Origin: an uncultured Pirellulales bacterium | GTDB lineage: Bacteria > Planctomycetota > Phycisphaerae > Sedimentisphaerales > Anaerobacaceae | Direction of reading: 5' to 3' | Assembly (NCBI GenBank): GCA_964508925.1 | Contig: CAZDVM010000008.1 | Location: 97,774-161,773, forward strand | Length of the DNA: 64,000 nt | In this document: piece after piece, positions 3,145-64,000 of the stretch | How positions within the stretch are numbered: the first letter of the stretch is position 1 | Layout: the number at the start of each line of letters is the position of its first letter | Program-made: the position numbers and the translations under genes | Notes under the pieces: model-generated | Database searches by the model: none | Seen by the model: only the letters and a program-made list of their open reading frames with translations | Told to the model about the DNA's origin: nothing

Positions 3145-3915
3145 ATGCAGATAGCTACTTTTAATGTAAATTCACTGCGAGCACGAATCGGAATCGTGCG
3201 GGACTGGATCAAGGACAATAAGCCTGATGTGCTGTGCCTTCAGGAAACGAAGGTTCAGGATGATGAATTTCCGGAAGATGAATTCGACGGTTTCGAATAT
3301 AATTTCGTTTACCGGGGACAGAAGACTTACAACGGAGTTGCGATAATAAGCAGGCATGAGATAAATGATGTAGAGATGAGCCTGGATGAGGATCCGAAGG
3401 ATGAGGCAAGGCTGATAAAGGCAGCAGTTAATAATGTTGCGATAATAAATGCCTATGTACCACAGGGACAGTCGCGAGATTCTGATATGTTTCAATATAA
3501 ATTAGAATGGCTGGGGAATCTTAAGAAATTCATCGATAAGCGATTTAAGAAAAAAGACAAGGTTGTTCTAGTTGGGGATCTTAATATAGCTCCGGAGGAC
3601 AGAGACGTTTATGACCCGGAAATACTAGAGGGGCATGTCTGTTTTAATGAGGAAGTCAGTAAGATATTCGATGATCTGAAGGACTGGGGATTTGTGGACT
3701 GTTTCAGAAAGCATAATGAAAAGCACAGTCAGTTTTCTTTCTGGGATTATCGCGAGGGAAATGCGTTCAAGAAGAACCGCGGGTGGCGGCTTGATCATAT
3801 TCTTGCAACAAAGCCAATGGCGGACAAGTGTTCGAAGTGCTATATAGATAAGGGACAGAGGGAACTTAAAAAGCCGAGTGACCATACGCCCGTTATTGCG
3901 GAGTTCGATATATAA
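3145..3915 (+). CDS. xth: Exodeoxyribonuclease III
   Basis: MQIATFNVNSLRARIG...DVLCLQETK...SDHTPV: full ExoIII/APE1 family signature. Confidence 0.9.
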   Translation: MQIATFNVNSLRARIGIVRDWIKDNKPDVLCLQETKVQDDEFPEDEFDGFEYNFVYRGQKTYNGVAIISRHEINDVEMSLDEDPKDEARLIKAAVNNVAIINAYVPQGQSRDSDMFQYKLEWLGNLKKFIDKRFKKKDKVVLVGDLNIAPEDRDVYDPEILEGHVCFNEEVSKIFDDLKDWGFVDCFRKHNEKHSQFSFWDYREGNAFKKNRGWRLDHILATKPMADKCSKCYIDKGQRELKKPSDHTPVIAEFDI

Positions 3916-3939
3916 AATTTTAAATTCAGGGAAGATATT

Positions 3940-5277
3940 ATGTTTCAAAAAGTATTCGATTTTTTAAGGCACGGTATCTGGCGGTTGAGATTGAAGAATT
4001 ATCCGCCGGGAAAGTCATTTCTATTAAAACAGCTTCGAGTAATAGTGCTGTCGGTGAGAGGATTTGTAGAAGATCAGTGCAAGTTCCGAGCGTCTGCTTT
4101 AACATTCTTTTCGCTGCTTTCGATCGTGCCTGTATTGGCATTAATGTTCGGCATAGCAAAGGGATTCGGCCTTCAAAAAAGAGTAGAAAATGCAATACTT
4201 AATAATTTGCAAGACTTTGAAAATGTAGAAGGCTATGAAAAGATGGCCGAAAACATCATTTCCTTTTCAAATTCGCTGCTAGAACGAACAAGCGGCGGCC
4301 TTATTGCTGGTATCGGTGTGGTGTTTCTTTTCTGGACTATTATTAAGCTTTTAGGAAATATTGAAAATTCATTCAATAACATCTGGGGCGTTAAAAAACC
4401 CAGGCACCTTGGAAGAAAATTCAGTGACTATCTTTCAGTGATCCTTATCTGCCCGATACTTCTGGTGATATCCAGTAGTCTCAATGTAGCAATAACGACA
4501 CATGTAAAAGACTTTATTGCAAATTTCGATGTTCCGAATATTATTTCAGCCTTGATATTACTTTCATTGAGGCTGCTTCCGTTTATCACAATCTGGTTAA
4601 CCTTTTCGTTTGTATTTATTTTCATGCCAAATACAAAGGTCAAGCTTAAATCGGCCTTCGCATCTGCAGTGGTTTCGGGGACATTATTTGTTATAGCTCA
4701 GAAGCTTTATGTGATTTTCCAGGTAGGATCAGCCAAATACAGTGCTATTTACGGTAGCTTTGCAGCACTTCCTTTGTTTTTATTGTGGCTTCAGATAAGC
4801 TGGCTGATAGTTCTTTTCGGGGGGGAGTTGTCTTTTGCATATCAGAATGTTGACACTTACGAGTTCGAACAGGAGAGCCTCTCGATAAGTTATAAATTCA
4901 AGAAAAAGCTTTCGCTTCTGATAACGCATTTATTCGTAATGGATTTCTGCAATGAAAAGCCTGCGAAGACATCGTCAGAAATTACGCATCATTTTGAGAT
5001 CCCGATCAGGCTTGTACGGCAGATAGTTTTCGAACTTTGTGAATCAGGTATTCTTTCGGAAGTTAAAAAAGACGATGAGACTGACACGGCGTATCAGCCC
5101 GCGGTTTCAGTGAATAAGCTGACCATTAAATATGTTCTGGATGCCCTGGAAGGACATGGCAGTGCCGATATACCCATGGAAAAGACCGAGGTGCTTGAAA
5201 AACTGTCCGGCTGTCTAGAAGATATTTCCAAACAGATAGAGAAGTCGCCGGCTAATGTAAAATTAATGGACATCTGA
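3940..5277 (+). CDS. YihY/BrkB family membrane protein (RNase BN-like) with C-terminal extension
   Basis: 445 aa. Multi-TM core typical of the YihY family (FRASALTFFSLLSIVP) plus a soluble C-terminal ~110 aa domain. Confidence 0.65.
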   Translation: MFQKVFDFLRHGIWRLRLKNYPPGKSFLLKQLRVIVLSVRGFVEDQCKFRASALTFFSLLSIVPVLALMFGIAKGFGLQKRVENAILNNLQDFENVEGYEKMAENIISFSNSLLERTSGGLIAGIGVVFLFWTIIKLLGNIENSFNNIWGVKKPRHLGRKFSDYLSVILICPILLVISSSLNVAITTHVKDFIANFDVPNIISALILLSLRLLPFITIWLTFSFVFIFMPNTKVKLKSAFASAVVSGTLFVIAQKLYVIFQVGSAKYSAIYGSFAALPLFLLWLQISWLIVLFGGELSFAYQNVDTYEFEQESLSISYKFKKKLSLLITHLFVMDFCNEKPAKTSSEITHHFEIPIRLVRQIVFELCESGILSEVKKDDETDTAYQPAVSVNKLTIKYVLDALEGHGSADIPMEKTEVLEKLSGCLEDISKQIEKSPANVKLMDI

Positions 5278-6415: not shown

Positions 6416-7369
6416 ATGAATTTTTCCTGTGCTGTGGCAGAATGCAAAGATTACGAAAAGGAAAACGTAAAAGGTGCTTTGGAAAGGACTTTTTCACTTC
6501 TGGGGGGACTGGATAAATTTGTTGACAAAGGTGACAAGGTACTTATCAAACCCAATCTTATCGCTCCTAAGCCGGCTTCCATCCCGGCACAGACAAACGG
6601 AACCATGATCGTTGAGACGGCGAGAATTTTAAAGGAATTCGGAGCGAAGCCTTTTGTGGGTGATTCCCCTGCTTGGTCGAATATTTCTAACTGTTTAAAG
6701 AAGCTGGTTATTTATGATGAACTGGAAAGGATGGATGTGCCGGTCAAGGCATTTGTCAGGCCATATAAGAAGAGACTAAAGAATCCTTCCTGTAAGATCG
6801 GTTTCAGCACGGCTGCAAAGGAAGCGGACAAGATAATAAATCTGCCGAAATTGAAGGCACATCAGCAGCTTGGAGCGACGGTTGCGGTAAAGAATATGTT
6901 TGGGACAGTCACGGGAAAACAGAAGGCATACCTGCATTTTTCTATGGGCGGTAACAGGGCAAGATTCGCCAAGATGCTGATAAATATTTATGAAGAGATG
7001 AGGCCGGCACTGAATATTGTGGATGCGGTGGATGCAATGGAAGGACCGGGGCCTATCCGAGGCAATCCAAGGCGGCTTGGGTTGATCGTATCTTCGGAGC
7101 AGCCGATATGCTGTGAGCTGATATGCGCAAAAGTGATCAACCTGGATATCAATAAATTGTGTATCTTAAACGCTGCGAGAGAGCTTCATTACGGGCCGAA
7201 GCGACCGGAGGAAATCGAAATCCTCGGAGACGGATTCGAAGATAGAATATGCAGGAATTTTGTTTTGCCTGAGATCAAGCCGATCAAATTTTCCTTCGGA
7301 CATGTCTGCAGGAGTGTTTTTAGGCAGATAATGCTATTGATAAAGGCAGGCAGGAATTCGGATAATTGA
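6416..7369 (+). CDS. DUF362 domain-containing protein
   Basis: GDKVLIKPNL...GAKPFVGDSP pattern typical of DUF362. Starts 4 nt after the upstream lipoprotein gene, so likely co-transcribed. Confidence 0.7.
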   Translation: MNFSCAVAECKDYEKENVKGALERTFSLLGGLDKFVDKGDKVLIKPNLIAPKPASIPAQTNGTMIVETARILKEFGAKPFVGDSPAWSNISNCLKKLVIYDELERMDVPVKAFVRPYKKRLKNPSCKIGFSTAAKEADKIINLPKLKAHQQLGATVAVKNMFGTVTGKQKAYLHFSMGGNRARFAKMLINIYEEMRPALNIVDAVDAMEGPGPIRGNPRRLGLIVSSEQPICCELICAKVINLDINKLCILNAARELHYGPKRPEEIEILGDGFEDRICRNFVLPEIKPIKFSFGHVCRSVFRQIMLLIKAGRNSDN

Positions 7370-23999: not shown

Positions 24000-24510
24000 T
24001 AATGCCGGATTTTTAACATTTCAACCGATCATTTTGTTCTCCAAAACAACATATTTGCCGTTTTCAGTAATAAAACGGACATTGAAATTTGTTATAAAGA
24101 TTTTTATTTAAAATTTATAGGGTCTTTACAGCTATTTTTTATAATAATCTGGCTATATGGGATATAGGGAAAATTTTGATATGTTAATTTTCTGTTATTG
24201 TGGATAACTTGTTGAAAACTCTGATTTTTTCCACAGGCAAATGTTAATAAAATATTAATGTCACGTTAATTGTAAATTAAGCCTCATTGAATATATTAAC
24301 GGCCCGCATACTCTACTTAGTTTAACACCCCTTAAACCTTTATTATATAAGTACTTAAAACTTTTTTAACAAATAGAACCAGATAGTGTTTGTTAAAATT
24401 GTCAATTTTACTTAGGTTGCCTATTTTAACATATGGTATATCTAGAGGAAAAGATACCATAATAGAAAGACGTGGATAAGTGTTTGAATTAAGAAAATTT
24501 TTCAATTTTT

Positions 24511-25572: not shown

Positions 25573-25650
25573 ACATTTAAGGATATATTAAGTTAGAAAA
25601 AAATCCAATAGTAAAATAAATATTTTAAGTAAAATGAAACTTGCGAGAAA

Positions 25651-25689
25651 TAAAAAAGCTGAGCCGTCCTCCTCCGATTTCGACTCAGC
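25651..25689 (-). terminator. Rho-independent terminator-like hairpin (minus strand) 79 nt upstream of thiE; possible attenuator
   Basis: Minus strand reads GCUGAGUCGAAAUCGGAGGAGGACGGCUCAGC followed by UUUUUUAUUU. It lies 377 nt downstream of the preceding gene's stop. Confidence 0.4.
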
Positions 25690-26066
25690 GTCACCCTTTT
25701 AATAAATTGCCCTGAAAGTTTTATCGAGCGGACCATTCCTCCTCCAAATAAAACTTTTCGAATGTCCGCCCGATATCAACTTTTTAAAGCAACGGACTTT
25801 ATTATATGCAATAGGTATGCCAAAAACTTTTCTTTTTTGAATAAGCTCAAAAAAAGCCCGAAAACAGGCATTAAAGGGGTTATTAAAAAATTTTGAAAAT
25901 ATTTTTGATTGTAACAGTTTTGCGCTTTTGTTGATTTTATTAAACATCTGGTTTGTTTCAGGGTTTTTATTTAAGTAAATATCGGACTTTTACCCCATGT
26001 CTATTGTAAAGAATCCTTGTGTTTAAAAAAATAAACACCTCTGTTTACAAAAGTGTACGAAAGAGT

Positions 26067-36597: not shown

Positions 36598-36982
36598 TGT
36601 TTCTGAACAACCCCCTATCTGAATCCATTCTTTAAACCATAATCCATTATATTCTCTATAAGTATAAAAATACCTATAGTAATTCTTTCGGCCAGTTTTA
36701 CTTTAAAACTTTACAATTTTATGGGACGAGCCGATAAAAAACCCCGATATTAATACTAAAATCGGGATTTTCGAGTGTTTTCCAATATGAAAAAGTAGTG
36801 TAAAAATCTTCATGGCAAGGTTTTACGGCACTTTGAGATATCCTGAACTTTTCAGCAAAAAATATTAAATTTTTTTGAATTTTTATAAAGATTGCTGTTA
36901 TTAATGCCATGAAAACCAAAAACCGCTGGTTTTTAGCTGGCGGTCCCAGGTGATTTTCAGTATTTCTGAAAGCTGAAAATTC

Positions 36983-37342
36983 TTATTTTTTCAGCTTAGC
37001 GATCAATTCTTCGATCTTTTTATGGTTTTCAGGCGTAGTTCTAACAAATACCTGCCCATCATTTTTAATTTGATAAATTCTATGTGGAGACTTCGGTTTC
37101 CGTTTCAGTCTCGATGTCTCCCAATCCTCGGGTATCATGGTTTGGATGAGTTTTGGTAAATTCCTGTTTGTTTCTTCATCGTTTATAAAACAATAGGTTT
37201 TAACCTTGAAATCCGCATTTTCATAGGGTGTTGATCTTTCAGGCTCATCGGATTTATACTCTTTTCTACTAGAAACGCAAATACAGCCTGAAGGAGTTAA
37301 AGTTACCAATACTAAAAGACTCACCAATATTCTCTTTTTCAT
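36983..37342 (-). CDS. Small secreted/lipoprotein (119 aa)
   Basis: Signal peptide with lipobox-like TPSGC. 9-bp stem hairpin plus downstream terminator-like structure at 36905-36982. Confidence 0.5.
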   Translation of the reverse strand: MKKRILVSLLVLVTLTPSGCICVSSRKEYKSDEPERSTPYENADFKVKTYCFINDEETNRNLPKLIQTMIPEDWETSRLKRKPKSPHRIYQIKNDGQVFVRTTPENHKKIEELIAKLKK

Positions 37343-59940: not shown

Positions 59941-62187
59941 CTATTCGATCACTTCATTCGGCTCGTTCGGCTCGGAAAGTTCGGTTTCTTCCTCGACAAA
60001 ACTGAAGTTATTTCTTTCCACGATATTGTCAGATGTAAGATGAACCATCGCAAGGCTCTGGGCCTTCCTGCCGGCTTCAAGATAAAGTGTCATCGGTTTG
60101 TTCATCTCATAATCTTCGAAGAAAAACTCATCGGCAGAAAGAGTATTTACCACATAATAGCTCTGTTCTGGCTTAAACACAAAACTCAGCGGAAGTTCAT
60201 TCGGCTCTTGTTTGCCCCGGGGTATCAGTGACATCAGCTTTTCATTCAGCAGTGCCCTCTTCTTATAGGCCCCGGTCGCCCTTCCCTGCGGCGTACCCTC
60301 ACTCTGTATCTCATACACCAGCATATCTTCAGGCGTAAAGAGCCTGATCCTCTGACGATCCCTGACCGTCACCTTCAGATCATCTTTTGCATACTCGGAA
60401 TTAAATTTCTCAACCGCCGCTTCGAAGCTGTTCGCATCCTCAACCATCTTCACAAACTCATCGACTTTCGGCTGCATATTCTCAAGTGCTGCAACCTTCT
60501 TCAGATCCTCAGTGACATCTTCCTTAACCGAGTAAATTTTTTCCTCTGCGGTCTCTTCCAGCCTCAAGGCGTTTTTACTTATCACGGTATCAAGTGTCGG
60601 CATCTTCTGCTTCTGAGTTTTCGTCACTCGCGCAAGCATGAACAGCCTGTTACCCATATCCTTCAGCGGCCCGATATTCTTATAAAGCTCCGGAGGCTGA
60701 ATATCGAAAGGTCCGAGGTCACTCAAATCCAGCTCACCTGCAGAGAACAATATCTGGCTCATATAAACCGGTGTACCGGCAGAACCACGCATAAACATTC
60801 TGCCCAGGTTTGCATCTTCCATAACATCCGCCACTCCAAGCATACCGGTCTTACCCGAAAGCACCGGCAGCCCGAACTTTTCGGTAAGCTCCTGTGCCGC
60901 CATCTTATAATCACCCGAAAGCTTCCTGTAATCCTCTCCGGTCAGCATTTCCACACTTTTATCACTCTGCTCAAGCCCAACCTCGGTAAGCGTTTTCGCT
61001 TGCTCCATAACCTTATCGGCCTTGTCGGTGATCCGGTTCTCCGTAATCCTCCTTCGTATCTGGCTCATCACCGAGGAATAACTCTTCAGCCTTTGCTCTT
61101 TCGGCGAATTCGGATCGTTAGGATCGGTCGGCACCTGCTCGGTGAACATGTTCCGGTTTCTCTGATAAAAATTCTCCATCTCCTCGCTCGTAGGCAATTC
61201 GACAGTCTCTAAGATATCGTCCCTTTTCACCGCAATATACTCGAACGCCACCATCTCCGGCAGCTTATACCCGAAGCCGTAAGGATTATCCTCCGTCACC
61301 ACATCCGGCAGCACATCCTTATACTCTTCAAACTGCTGCTCGATCGCCTCCTGCGAAGGCTCCGGCTGCTCATCCAGAAAAAGCTCCGCCGGTACAGCCG
61401 CAAACTGACCCGAAACTTTTGCATTTCTCAGCTTCGTATCGACCCTGATCTCTGTTTCGGTAAAACTCTCACCCGTGCAGACCATCCGGTTATAAGTAAT
61501 TATCCTCATCAGTTTCGCAAAAGTATCTATCACCTGCTCCTGCGATATATTCTGCATTCGGGTAACATTCTGCATCACCTGCTCGAAACTCGACTGCTCG
61601 AAAAGCTGCGGAACGACGTTGGCAAGCTGCTTAGCGGCATCTTCCCTTTTGATCCTTATTCCCGCCTGGTGGGCCTCGTGGTTCAGAAGTATCCAGTAGA
61701 TATGCGGCGGATAACGCTTCTCATAAAAATTATTTATCTGCTCTGCACTTATCGCAATATTATTCGTCACCGCTATCCTCTGCAGAAACTGGGCGATCTG
61801 TGCAGATGTGGTCGTATCGGAAAAAAGCAGTTCCGCTATCAGCAAAGCCCTCAGATCAGGCGCCCTCATCGCCGGCATCGGGATATTCCTCAGCATTAAC
61901 TCCGCCCTCAAAAACTTCAGCGTCTCAAGCTCCCTGGAGGCTATAATACTGTCCTCGCGGGTGATCTCCTTGCCGTCATTATAAACTGCAAGTGTCTCGC
62001 CGAGACCTCTCCTTCTCTTGCCAAGCTGCCTCAGCCATGCACCTGCCACAAATCCGATCATAAGAATTACGATCACGATCGCCATTATCTTACGGTTGTT
62101 CCTGCGGAACCATCTGGTTAAACTCATATTTCGCTCCAAATATCTTTTAGAATCTCTTTGTGGAAAAACTTCAAGTATAAAGGGCAA
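59941..62187 (-). CDS. Periplasmic chaperone PpiD/SurA-like protein with N-terminal membrane anchor
   Basis: 748 aa. Basic N-terminus plus single TM (IMAIVIVILMIGFVAGAWL). Long SurA-N-like helical domain. No clear parvulin signature seen by eye. Confidence 0.5.
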   Translation of the reverse strand: MPFILEVFPQRDSKRYLERNMSLTRWFRRNNRKIMAIVIVILMIGFVAGAWLRQLGKRRRGLGETLAVYNDGKEITREDSIIASRELETLKFLRAELMLRNIPMPAMRAPDLRALLIAELLFSDTTTSAQIAQFLQRIAVTNNIAISAEQINNFYEKRYPPHIYWILLNHEAHQAGIRIKREDAAKQLANVVPQLFEQSSFEQVMQNVTRMQNISQEQVIDTFAKLMRIITYNRMVCTGESFTETEIRVDTKLRNAKVSGQFAAVPAELFLDEQPEPSQEAIEQQFEEYKDVLPDVVTEDNPYGFGYKLPEMVAFEYIAVKRDDILETVELPTSEEMENFYQRNRNMFTEQVPTDPNDPNSPKEQRLKSYSSVMSQIRRRITENRITDKADKVMEQAKTLTEVGLEQSDKSVEMLTGEDYRKLSGDYKMAAQELTEKFGLPVLSGKTGMLGVADVMEDANLGRMFMRGSAGTPVYMSQILFSAGELDLSDLGPFDIQPPELYKNIGPLKDMGNRLFMLARVTKTQKQKMPTLDTVISKNALRLEETAEEKIYSVKEDVTEDLKKVAALENMQPKVDEFVKMVEDANSFEAAVEKFNSEYAKDDLKVTVRDRQRIRLFTPEDMLVYEIQSEGTPQGRATGAYKKRALLNEKLMSLIPRGKQEPNELPLSFVFKPEQSYYVVNTLSADEFFFEDYEMNKPMTLYLEAGRKAQSLAMVHLTSDNIVERNNFSFVEEETELSEPNEPNEVIE

Positions 62188-62232
62188 ATCCGTTTTTTCA
62201 AGAAAAATAGCCGCCTAAAAAGACGAAAATAA

Positions 62233-62639
62233 CATATGCAAAAAGTTGTGCATATGCCAACTCATTGCTGTAATACCGGATGAAGCTTAAACCATACCCC
62301 AGCCTGCCCTGAGCAAAGCCGAACGGGTCATCTCGAGTGAGGCGAAGCCGAATCGAGCCAATGCCGTTTATTGCAAGGTGTCGTTCCTTAAATCTTTTCG
62401 CTTAAGGAATGTTAATATGAGTATCGACTTTAAAAATCGGGAGCCTTTACCGCAGAAAGATCTCTCCGCTTCGACCGGCAAAGCCGGTCTCCGGTCGAGA
62501 TGACGGGGAGGGCGATTGTACTTCGTTCACTGTGTACGAGATAACAGGGGGGGGGACTTCACTCACTCCGATTAAGATTACATACACTGTTTGCAAAACG
62601 TTTTCTACCTCACGTCATTCCGAGCGGAGCCGAGGAATC
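62233..62639. repeat. Hairpin-dense non-coding region with four perfect 8-bp inverted repeats, a G9 homopolymer and a pair of imperfect 26-28 nt direct repeats
   Basis: IRs: CATATGCA/TGCATATG (62233-62256), TTCCTTAA/TTAAGGAA (62384-62409), TCGACCGG/CCGGTCGA (62471-62498), CTCGA/TCGAG within the repeat at 62327. G9 at 62547-62555. Direct repeats GTCATCTCGAGTGAGGCGAAGCCGAATC (62327-62354) and GTCATTCCGAGCGGAGCCGAGGAATC (62614-62639). Confidence 0.5.
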
Positions 62640-62845
62640 TTTCTTAGATAACCCTTTATAAAGATATATAAAAATTAATATAATAGTTTTATTTATTTTT
62701 GTCACTTTTTAAAAAAGATTAAACAGTAATAAAAATTTTTATATGTTAAACAAAAAATACTGAAGAAAAAAAAGAAAAAAACCGAAAGGAACAATATGAT
62801 ACTGTGACTTTTTATTGTTGAACTTTTAACTTGGAAAGGAAAATA

Positions 62846-63073
62846 ATGGCTAAAAGAAAAACAAGAAAGAAAAAATCAGGAAAAAAGAACCTTAAAAAGG
62901 GTAGATGGACTAAAGAAGAAGTAAAATTTCTCAAAAAAGAATTTCCAAGAAGACCATGCCAAGAAGTCGCTAATGAATTAGGCCGCCCATTGTATGCAGT
63001 TAAAAGAAAAGCGTATAGACTGGGCAAATACAAAACTAAAAAATATTTAAGAAGTTTGGGGCGTAAAGTTTAA
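62846..63073 (+). CDS. Small highly basic protein with Myb/SANT-like (homeodomain-like) helix pattern
   Basis: 75 aa. MAKRKTRKKKSGKKNLKKGRWTKEEVKFLKKEF...CQEVANELGRPLYAVKRKAYRLGK fits W-T-x-EE...L...IA..LGR...C..R of SANT/Myb repeats. AAGGAAA RBS. Lies in AT-rich DNA. Confidence 0.5.
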   Translation: MAKRKTRKKKSGKKNLKKGRWTKEEVKFLKKEFPRRPCQEVANELGRPLYAVKRKAYRLGKYKTKKYLRSLGRKV

Positions 63074-63076
63074 AAT

Positions 63077-63946
63077 TTAGACTTTAGAAACCCTTTTGCT
63101 TTTTACCTTAAGTAATTTGTAACTAGCGCCTATATGCACTAGGGTTTTTTCCTTAGATGGATTTAATCTTTTTTGAGTTGTTTTTATTGCTGCTTCTGAT
63201 TTATCGATACCCATCCATTTACGGTTAAGGTTTTCTGCAATCTTTAATGTAGTTCCAGAGCCACAGAAACAATCAAATACTGTATTTTCTGGTAGAGATG
63301 AAGCTTCAATAATACGCTTAAGAAGCTTTAAATTTTTTTGTGTAGGATAAGAGGGATAAGGGGCATCTTTAAATTCCCAGATATCTTGCACCATTTTTCC
63401 CTTTTTCCTGGCTTCGTCAGCATATTTAATTTTTCTAGGATTGCCAGTTTTGGACCATTCTATTAAACCTTTTTCGTCTAACTTATCTAATTTTTTAGGA
63501 TCATATCGCCAATGCCTACCTGGTGGTGGATTCATGCCTTTCCACTTTTTCCCTGTATTTCCATTAGCAGTTTCACCGGGTGCATGTAAAGGAGTAGTGG
63601 TATATCTCCGTCCCTTGGAGTCTTTTTTAGGGAATAGTCTTTTTAAATCTTCCTCACTTTGTGGTTCTCTTGGTTCGTTCCAAATAAAATCATCAGACTT
63701 GGTATAGAAAAGAATCATATCTTTAATATTTCCGTAACCTTTTCTTTTAAAATTTTTAGGATTACATTTAATCCTTGTTATATCATTTCTAAAATTATCT
63801 TGCCCAAAAACCTCGTCCATGATTATTTTAACGTAATGACCAATTTTATAGTCTATGTGCAGGTAAATAGAGGCGTGTTCAGCCATGAGTTCTCGGATGT
63901 ATATTAATCTTTCTCTTATAAATTCAAGATATTTTTCTTCTTTCAA
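63077..63946 (-). CDS. DNA methyltransferase (N4/N6 amino-MTase, beta-class), 5' end truncated by window edge
   Basis: C-terminal FDCFCGSGTT (motif I, AdoMet binding), typical of beta-class MTases where DPPY precedes it. The DPPY motif lies beyond the window end. Convergent with the basic mini-protein gene, 3-nt gap. Confidence 0.7.
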   Translation of the reverse strand: MKEEKYLEFIRERLIYIRELMAEHASIYLHIDYKIGHYVKIIMDEVFGQDNFRNDITRIKCNPKNFKRKGYGNIKDMILFYTKSDDFIWNEPREPQSEEDLKRLFPKKDSKGRRYTTTPLHAPGETANGNTGKKWKGMNPPPGRHWRYDPKKLDKLDEKGLIEWSKTGNPRKIKYADEARKKGKMVQDIWEFKDAPYPSYPTQKNLKLLKRIIEASSLPENTVFDCFCGSGTTLKIAENLNRKWMGIDKSEAAIKTTQKRLNPSKEKTLVHIGASYKLLKVKSKRVSKV

Positions 63947-64000
63947 AGTGGCGTGACCCCCTGAAACTGTACCATTGCTAATTAGAGAGTATTCGATAGA

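Follow-up and report, generated by a model that had tools for sequence, protein, structure and literature searches.

The noncoding region at positions 62233 to 62639 of the 64-kb stretch of DNA analyzed here (the window), which derives from a Sedimentisphaerales-like planctomycete, is housed in a gap of ~720 nucleotides (nt) between divergent genes and contains a group of short hairpins and direct repeats. We conclude that the region is probably a cluster, similar to a bacterial interspersed mosaic element (BIME), of DNA hairpin repeats of the CGTC-tagged repetitive extragenic palindromic (REP) superfamily (NTS in Neisseria; Ssn-related motifs [SRM] in general), that these repeats probably act as DNA, and that the cluster may mark a recombination-prone junction. 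With two intact copies and three or four decayed or variant ones, the cluster accounts for the high GC content of the region, its direct repeats, its run of nine G residues (G9), and all but one of its three perfect hairpins. This reading accounts for the odd spacer without a new RNA or a new mobile element, and it would extend the CGTC-REP/SRM family to a Sedimentisphaerales-like planctomycete.

By analogy to the published relatives, the tagged strand would fold into a hairpin once it became single-stranded during transformation, conjugation, or replication, and a small single-domain GIY-YIG nuclease (Ssn) would bind the folded hairpin and cut a few nucleotides 5' of the tag. Copies probably spread by, or along with, the ssn gene, the NTS-ssn-NTS layout being analogous to that of REPs and the genes of REP-associated tyrosine transposases (RAYT). 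In this lineage, the ancestral spacer between hemL and a gene for a "PpiD-like" protein would have been disrupted, and an AT-rich segment with a plasmid-type methylase gene abuts the last repeat. A terminator-like hairpin (62230 to 62259, minus strand) may keep read-through transcription from reaching the conserved promoter that serves the PpiD-like gene.

Repeat units of the cluster

Repeat units were sought with a strict descriptor that consisted of a CGTCA or TGTCA tag, any four nucleotides (N4), GA, a variable interior, GA with an optional A or G, the reverse complement of N4, and TC; it was tested against shuffled sequences. The descriptor replaced a covariance model of the family, since the inner loops are so variable that the 3' arms were not brought into register by MAFFT. 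The 64 kb contained exactly two matches, U2 and U4, both in the flagged region, with 0.003 matches expected per shuffled window.

U4 (CGTCATTCCGAGCGGAGCCGAGGAATC; 62613 to 62639, plus strand) is the canonical intact member. It is composed of a CGTC tag, an ATTCC/GGAAT stem, a core of GA/GA plus a GCGGAGC mini-hairpin, and a C after the palindrome. A 26-mer identical to U4 was found at positions 4876 to 4901 of contig L038, and U4 shares 29 nt of identity with copies in Hymenobacter. Folding of U4 as DNA with nearest-neighbor parameters yielded only −1.9 kcal/mol; this weak energy carries little weight because standard parameters miss GCGNAGC mini-hairpins and sheared G/A pairs (PMC13037366). 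U2 (CGTCATCTCGA-[CCGGAGACCGGCTTTGCCGG]-TCGAAGCGGAGAGATC; 62459 to 62505, minus strand), the second intact member, folded with −12.5 kcal/mol (z = −2.31). It carries an additional inner hairpin, which comprises an 8-bp hairpin (62471 to 62498) and a 7-bp stem (62473 to 62489), and long variants resembling it were found elsewhere (e.g., AACCGTCATCTCGAACGCACC...GGCGGAGAGATCTCA). The tags of U2 and U4 face each other, with 107 nt between the two units.

A preliminary description of this DNA, made from the letters alone, had reported two related direct repeats, four perfect 8-bp hairpins, and the G9 run. Both direct repeats are real (GTCATCTCGAG... at 62327 and GTCATTCCGAG...GAATC at 62614), the right-hand one being U4; the intact third copy on the minus strand, U2, had been overlooked, as had several decayed copies. 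The left-hand direct repeat is U1 (gGTCATCTCGAGTGAGGCGAAGCCGAATCGAGCC; 62326 to 62359, plus strand), a decayed copy of the long variant; U1 does not match the strict descriptor. A GCGAAGC mini-hairpin forms the core of U1, C comes directly after its 5-bp CTCGA/TCGAG stem, its outer 3' arm is mutated, and ~30 of 37 positions match the family variant GTCATTCCGAGTGAGCGAAGCGAATCGAGGAATC in a global alignment. U1b (TGTCG-TTCCTTAA-loop-TTAAGGAA-TG; 62379 to 62411, plus strand), which contains the second perfect hairpin, is a possible derivative copy, assigned by resemblance only: its tag is of the TGTC type, but the A next to the tag has become G and the palindrome lacks a trailing C. Its 10-pair stem folded as DNA with a z score of −5.16.

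Two further units are degenerate. U0 (CTGCCCTGAGCAAAGCCGAACGGG; 62304 to 62327, plus strand) is a fragment that forms a direct repeat (D7) with U1 at a spacing of 29 nt. From a comparison by eye with TCTTGTCATTCCGACTGAGGCAAAGCCGAACGGAGGAATC, it can be assigned tentatively to the inner GAG-GCAAAGC-CGAACGG part of the long variants, which it resembles, and its tag and outer stem would have been lost. U3 (CTGTTATCTCGTACACAGTGAACGAAGTACAATCG; 62513 to 62547, minus strand) was recognized as a direct repeat (D1) with 74% identity to the 5' part of U2 at a spacing of 41 nt; it no longer forms a hairpin, and its fold is not significant. The G9 run (62547 to 62555, plus strand) is equivalent to a C9 run directly upstream of the U3 tag on the minus strand and is paralogous to CCCTCCCC upstream of U2. 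It is the sole run of at least eight G residues in the window, and a run of this kind is statistically ordinary (40% of shuffles had at least as many matches). The idea that G9 serves as a phase-variation switch found no support, since no open reading frame (ORF) or promoter spans the run, which is the upstream C-run of the decayed copy U3.

The hairpins as previously counted were recovered in part. Three perfect 8-bp hairpins with loops of up to 40 nt are present (62233 to 62256, 62384 to 62409, and 62471 to 62498), and the fourth is not; candidates for it are the 7-bp stem at 62473 to 62489 and a 10-bp inverted repeat (62327 to 62336 and 62495 to 62504) whose arms lie 158 nt apart. Three perfect 8-bp stems represent an enrichment over dinucleotide shuffles (mean, 0.18; P, ~0.001), and to that extent the stem density is indeed high, but it is equalled by that of three other spacers of the window. 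Those spacers (24000 to 24510, 25573 to 26066, and 36598 to 36990; 27 to 31% GC) contain equally many perfect 8-bp hairpins without CGTCA-type repeats. The GC content of 62233 to 62639 is 48.9%, compared to 27 to 31% in three other long spacers of the same genome. The region had also been said to hold no ORF of any size; it is a noncoding stretch, although ORFs of 37 to 49 codons exist in it, and none of these small ORFs had a Pfam match.

The stem density and a GC content well above that of the other spacers are the features that could point to a structured noncoding RNA, either a small RNA or a cis-regulatory leader, as had been proposed. We regard this proposal as highly improbable. No Rfam family matched the region even at an E value of ≤10 apart from chance matches to snoRNA-like models (E values of ~1 to 8, far below gathering scores), and the fold of the whole region was not significant relative to shuffles on either strand (z = −0.23 for the plus strand and −1.65 for the minus strand). 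The region is absent from all relatives examined, so that RNA covariation has nothing to draw on. In addition, the repeat family has no orientation bias, the published partner protein acts on single-stranded DNA (ssDNA), and the individual repeat units account for the stems.

Shape and spread of the hairpin family

The repeat unit is ~25 to 47 nt long. It begins with an unpaired Y-GTC tag and a covarying stem that opens with A-T and T-A pairs; at its apex, a conserved GAG...CGA surrounds a GCGNAGC mini-hairpin, and C stands right after the palindrome. When the viral contigs of IMG/VR were scanned with the motif of the preliminary description, contigs unrelated to one another yielded GTCATTCCGAGCGAAGC(C)GAGGAATC in ~45 copies, and a single copy was identical to U4.

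Covariation was tested with sites chosen on GTCA-N4-GAGCGAAGCGA alone, and 3' tails shuffled among the sites served as the control. A complementary 5-bp 3' arm was present in 67 of 118 distinct sites, whereas the shuffles averaged 17.5 such sites and never exceeded 28. Nine stem sequences were represented among the 67 sites (TTGC, TTCT, TCCT, TTCC, TGTT, TCCC, CCCC, TACT, and TCAT), and C followed the palindrome in 65 of them; position −1 in the family set was T in 55% and C in 32%. Because the arms are complementary in many versions of the stem, the stem covaries while the tag and the apical part are fixed, and the hairpin appears from these counts to be under selection. Conservation stops at positions −2 and +26, which argues that the unit is self-contained and without conserved flanks.

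These properties bear on the earlier suggestion of a miniature mobile element bounded by the direct repeats. What stands of it is that the single repeat, ~27 nt long, is a complete REP-like miniature element in its own right; the repeats are not the borders of a larger one. In the window and in ~2.7 Mb of fetched loci, the interior has no further copy. Neither do the repeats resemble those of miniature inverted-repeat transposable elements, U1 and U4 being direct rather than inverted and accompanied by no duplicated flank or target-site duplication.

To define the spread of the family, genomes were scanned with GTCATTCCGAGCGRAGCCGAGGAATC (one genome per species, with A or G allowed at one loop base), and at least 120 genome stretches matched. 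Among the matches listed, which came from isolates and metagenome-assembled genomes (MAGs; L190 to L309), more than 12 phyla were represented. They included Verrucomicrobia, Abditibacterium, Dehalococcoidia, Acidobacteria, Nitrospirae, and Hymenobacter isolates, as well as Clostridia, candidate-phyla-radiation (CPR) lineages, Omnitrophota, one cyanobacterium, Methylophaga, Pirellulales, and three Sedimentisphaerales loci. Hymenobacter (often ~69 nt apart), Abditibacterium, and Dehalococcoidia carry copies as inverted doublets, and among the matches listed, Hymenobacter piscis had copies at at least six loci and Abditibacterium at at least five. REP-type repeats are normally lineage specific, and a near-exact 26-mer across phyla is unusual for them. 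Literature searches with the repeat sequence as a string returned primer coincidences only; the family surfaced through the keywords "CGTC" and "GIY-YIG."

One of the Sedimentisphaerales loci (L235:4990-5130 and 7260-7300) has family hairpins in clusters of two or three within ordinary spacers that separate genes of sugar-acid catabolism (KDPG aldolase, sugar kinase, KduD-like, and KduI-like), and these clusters yield spurious ORFs with peptides such as ...ESRLRRDG...GFARND.... For annotation more generally, family hairpins create spurious small ORFs (peptides ...SFRAERGI... and ...RFARND...). They also break assemblies made with k = 31 and possibly misjoin them.

Next, the genes near the hairpins were considered. 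All five small GIY-YIG genes in the fetched loci (L222, L202, L237, L304, and L310) have GTCA-AT...GAG...CGA...AT-C hairpins within ~150 nt. The stems of these hairpins vary, and in most cases the gene has hairpins to its left and to its right. The proteins from L222, L202, and L304, which were scanned for domains, each consist of a single PF01541 domain and have lengths of 98 to 119 amino acids, and seven alternating hairpins surround the gene in L310. In L222:6159-6742, from a Sedimentisphaerales MAG (PL23b_bin.68), the GIY-YIG gene lies between two direct repeats of ~57 nt, and one inverted copy is also present. In each ~57-nt repeat, ~10 nt separate a half-hairpin (GTCATYCCGAG) from a full hairpin, after which comes TCTATTTAAACA. 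This arrangement in L222 resembles what an insertion into a hairpin would leave behind. The five genes are flanked by hairpins, whereas most hairpins are far from such a gene, a relation like that between REPs and RAYT genes.

Altered GIY-YIG genes are present at two loci. In L237:7720-8000, a family hairpin (GTCATTCCGTACTTGATACGGAATC) interrupts an Ssn-like GIY-YIG reading frame. In L188/L189:3839-4550, from a further Sedimentisphaerales genome, a transfer-messenger RNA gene (3839 to 4192) is followed by different GC-rich hairpins; the GIY-YIG gene that comes next contains an in-frame stop and is either a pseudogene or a recoded gene.

Whether the hairpins act as DNA or as RNA was weighed with the position and orientation of the copies in mind. 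In the alternative case, the hairpins would act like REPs in 3' untranslated regions (3' UTRs), stabilizing or terminating neighboring mRNAs (e.g., read-through from the methylase gene on the minus strand), and would have no role with an ssDNA nuclease. Di Nocera et al. have argued that many REPs are transcribed and placed downstream of ORFs (PMC3733652), a terminator-like hairpin with a T-run is present at 62259 to 62230 on the minus strand, and the minus strand of the region folds slightly better than shuffles (z = −1.65). The cluster, however, lies in a divergent gap, upstream of both neighbors, and not in a 3' UTR. Nor does the family have an orientation preference relative to flanking ORFs: 21 copies are codirectional with both ORFs and 18 are opposed to both, and the mixed cases number 7 and 7. 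Moreover, SsnA, the Ssn protein of Neisseria, does not bind the RNA form of NTS (PMC11893778), and the conserved GCGNAGC core is known for a stability that is specific to DNA (PMC13037366). Action as RNA is therefore considered unlikely, and action as DNA is the reading that we favor.

Synteny break and the AT-rich segment

The setting of the cluster was compared with that in relatives. By its PpiD-like protein, the organism belongs with Planctomycetota of the Phycisphaerae/Sedimentisphaerales type. Those usable for the PpiD-like gene were L067 (50% identity) plus others at 37 to 38%; scans with the PpiD-like protein found no relative in genome contigs, and metagenome contigs gave only a fragment with 27% identity. 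In L067, L186, and L188/L189, a divergent hemL gene lies upstream of the ppiD-like gene, with a spacer of 170 to 215 nt that lacks such hairpins; L185 has a different upstream neighbor, not hemL. DNA similarity between the window and L067 covers the gene and its promoter and ends at position 62210. The hemL gene is absent from the window, a tblastn search for a remnant of it being negative. Since relatives have the hemL spacer at this position and the window has none, the cluster together with the AT-rich methylase segment represents an insertion or rearrangement at a synteny break.

The composition changes at the same place: GC content falls from 49% to 18% exactly after U4. The AT-rich segment begins with a spacer of 18% GC that contains promoter-like sites (62640 to 62845) and continues with a small, very basic, Lys/Arg-rich ORF of 75 amino acids (GRWTKEEVKFLKKEF...; 62846 to 63073, plus strand) without a Pfam family. 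It is followed by a gene for a site-specific DNA methyltransferase of the N6_N4_Mtase family (63077 to 64000, minus strand; PF01555, E = 2e−38), which runs out of the window. The methyltransferase has 55% identity to methyltransferases on small Geobacillus and Campylobacter plasmids and 35 to 39% to phage methylases; from these matches, the gene appears to be cargo of a horizontally mobile type.

An independent Logan contig, L068 (four samples), corresponds to positions 62614 to 63975 of the window, starts at the first base of the U4 hairpin, and covers the AT-rich side only. The 75-residue ORF has its identical protein and DNA elsewhere solely on this short contig. In L068, U4 and the AT-rich DNA are physically joined, and the support from this contig extends to the right side only. 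The break at U4 is attributed to branching of the k = 31 assembly graph at a multicopy repeat.

An abrupt change in composition and a contig that begins exactly at 62614, where the assembly graph branches at the repeat, are also what would be seen if the U4 junction were an assembly artifact, in which planctomycete DNA and an unrelated AT-rich contig had been joined through the ~30-nt repeat (with G9 as a further sequencing or assembly error). This explanation is very unlikely in our judgment. A repeat of 26 to 30 nt is far below the read length and the usual k-mers of metagenome assembly, so reads would span it; a branch at k = 31 is expected from any multicopy repeat. U4 is contiguous with AT-rich DNA in L068 and other copies lie on the planctomycete side, so the family is present on both sides in any case.

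It had further been suggested that the repeats are attachment (att) or recombination sites at the edge of the AT-rich island. In this form of the explanation, U4, possibly with U1, would be the site used by the methylase island, and the 400 nt would be the border of the island or a nonautonomous element bounded by the direct repeats. The suggestion is plausible and unproven. In its favor, U4 ends at the GC drop, synteny with four relatives is broken here, the cargo comprises a plasmid-type methyltransferase gene, and in Neisseria dRS3/NTS is a reported target of a phage recombinase and is enriched near variable genes (PMC11893778). However, the 1.36 kb of the island within the window encode no integrase or recombinase, U1 and U4 share the family consensus only (~11 nt exact) and show no target-site duplication, none of the fetched sequences holds a further copy of the interior, and the same hairpins occur in ordinary metabolic spacers of relatives. 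We consider a dedicated att site of this kind rather unlikely and retain the cluster of CGTC-tagged hairpins at a recombination-prone junction as the better account.

A bolder version of that account can be formulated, in which hairpins of the GAG-GCGNAGC-CGA type form a separate subfamily of Ssn targets that had not been catalogued before, the 26-mer reflects recent interphylum spread of an Ssn-based selfish element, and the cluster was the landing or recombination site for the methylase island between hemL and the ppiD-like gene. We find this version doubtful and put it forward tentatively. Should the methylase segment indeed have been acquired by way of the cluster, these hairpins would mark variable, horizontally exchanged DNA in a bacterium other than Neisseria as well.

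The left neighbor of the cluster is the PpiD-like gene (59941 to 62127, minus strand, with its ATG at 62127), which encodes a membrane-anchored protein of 728 amino acids. The protein had no match to rotamase/peptidyl-prolyl isomerase or SurA families in Pfam. It is a conserved Sedimentisphaerales protein (725 to 760 amino acids), whose gene is followed downstream by a DUF6677 gene, a small ORF, and genes for RNase III and a STAS protein, and in most relatives is preceded by hemL. A consensus scan identified a promoter-like site of the gene at 62174 to 62201 on the minus strand (TTGAAA, a 16-nt spacer, and TATACT). The motif TTGAAAAA...TATACTT also occurs at L067:670-705, and the promoter-like site is the last part of the locus that is kept in the closest relative. 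Just upstream of this site (62201 to 62174 in the direction of transcription) stands the first of the perfect hairpins (62230 to 62259, minus strand), with an 8-bp perfect stem (CATATGCA/TGCATATG; 11 pairs including wobbles) that is followed by TTTTCGTCTT and folds with −6.4 kcal/mol (z = −3.45). With its T-run it scores as an intrinsic terminator, and it lies outside the repeat family.

Relation to known systems

Several observations weigh against assignment of the cluster to the CGTC-tagged superfamily with an Ssn-type partner. First, about half of the 407 nt (62257 to 62303, 62412 to 62458, and 62556 to 62612) belong to no repeat unit. Second, the family occurs at this single locus only in the 64-kb window and is not a dispersed, high-copy repeat there. 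Third, the window contains no GIY-YIG/ssn gene, and a tblastn search of it for a remnant was negative. In the direction from hairpin to gene, a GIY-YIG gene lies within 8 kb at 4 of 120 listed genome loci and at none of ~106 viral matches. Fourth, the solved proteins nearest to the L222 protein carry the label UPF0213, and the flanking GIY-YIG genes would be putative members of cd10448 only. Fifth, the published SRM string, HGTCWYN(0-2)YYVSBRHN(0-5)WNVSBRGN(0-2)RNCYNB, has no match in the window and misses U1, U2, U4, and the 25-nt consensus, while the Neisseria NTS used as a control matches it. Finally, the evidence that ties the repeats to the arrival of the AT-rich segment is circumstantial. 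On balance, the assignment remains probable. Because the published SRM pattern misses an abundant GCGNAGC subfamily with G/A mismatches, genome counts of Ssn targets may be too low.

With respect to the tip of the hairpin, GCGNAGC is an extraordinarily stable DNA mini-hairpin (reviewed by Kimoto and Hirao in 2026; PMC13037366). It is present as GCGGAGC in U4 and as GCGAAGC in U1 and in the family consensus, and it may have the same stabilizing role here. Mini-hairpin DNA as such is a physicochemical structure found at phage origins and promoters and not a repeat family (PMC13037366).

The cluster also resembles GTAG-type REPs and REPINs with their RAYT (TnpA-REP) partners and BIMEs: both comprise short, tagged, imperfect palindromes in alternating orientation, with action on single-stranded hairpins, and in both GTAG REP/RAYT systems and the Ssn-type family, one protein gene lies amid its own repeats while most copies are dispersed. 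In contrast to GTAG REP/RAYT systems, the tag here is CGTC, the partner is a GIY-YIG nuclease rather than a Y1 HUH transposase, and the 26-mer crosses phyla. The genes found beside clustered copies are GIY-YIG genes and not Y1 transposase genes.

CGTC/TGTC-tagged REPs have stems that open with A-T pairs, short tails, dimers in opposite orientation, and no known dedicated transposase (Di Nocera et al. 2013; PMC3733652), and the superfamily includes Neisseria dRS3 and Rickettsia RPE-4 and RPE-6 (PMC3733652). The survey of Di Nocera et al. found CGTC repeats in five phyla, Planctomycetes not among them. Their stems have 8 to 9 fully paired bp and loops of 4 to 5 nt, whereas the units described here have 5 Watson-Crick pairs, G/A mismatches, and a mini-hairpin of 2 to 3 bp, and in some units, such as U2, an inner hairpin has been inserted. 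The stems of U2 and U4 reach nine positions only when the G/A pairs are counted. Shared with the superfamily are the unpaired CGTC/TGTC tag, A-T pairs at the first two positions (A-T and T-A in both U2 and U4), a short tail, dimers and clusters in opposite orientation, and the lack of a tyrosine transposase. The tags are caCGTCATTCC in U4, ccCGTCATCTC in U2, gTGTCG in U1b, and a degenerate gGGTCA in U1.

The closest parallel is NTS of Neisseria, a 28-nt sequence (CGTCATTCCCGCGMAVGCGGGAATCYRG; Chenal et al., Nat Commun 2025; PMC11893778). SsnA, a 94-residue single-domain GIY-YIG nuclease, binds NTS and cuts a few nucleotides upstream of it, acting on the tagged strand only of ssDNA and not on RNA or double-stranded DNA; binding depends critically on the C that follows the palindrome and cleavage on the 3 nt that precede it, and the system lowers integration of NTS-bearing transforming DNA (PMC11893778). 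Homologues of ssn across phyla are flanked by related motifs, the SRM (PMC11893778). The NTS interior is fully paired (CCGCG...CGCGG), whereas the units in the window have GAG-(GCGNAGC)-CGA with tandem G/A mismatches. On shared architecture and gene association, which is outside the formal criterion of those authors, we would place this GA-mismatch/mini-hairpin subfamily with them: NTS/SRM and the repeats described here have in common a CGTCA tag, an ATTCC...GGAAT palindrome, a trailing C (GGAAT-C in U4, GAGAT-C in U2, and TCGAG-C in U1), directionality, a length of ~28 nt, intergenic clustering, and occurrence in many phyla.

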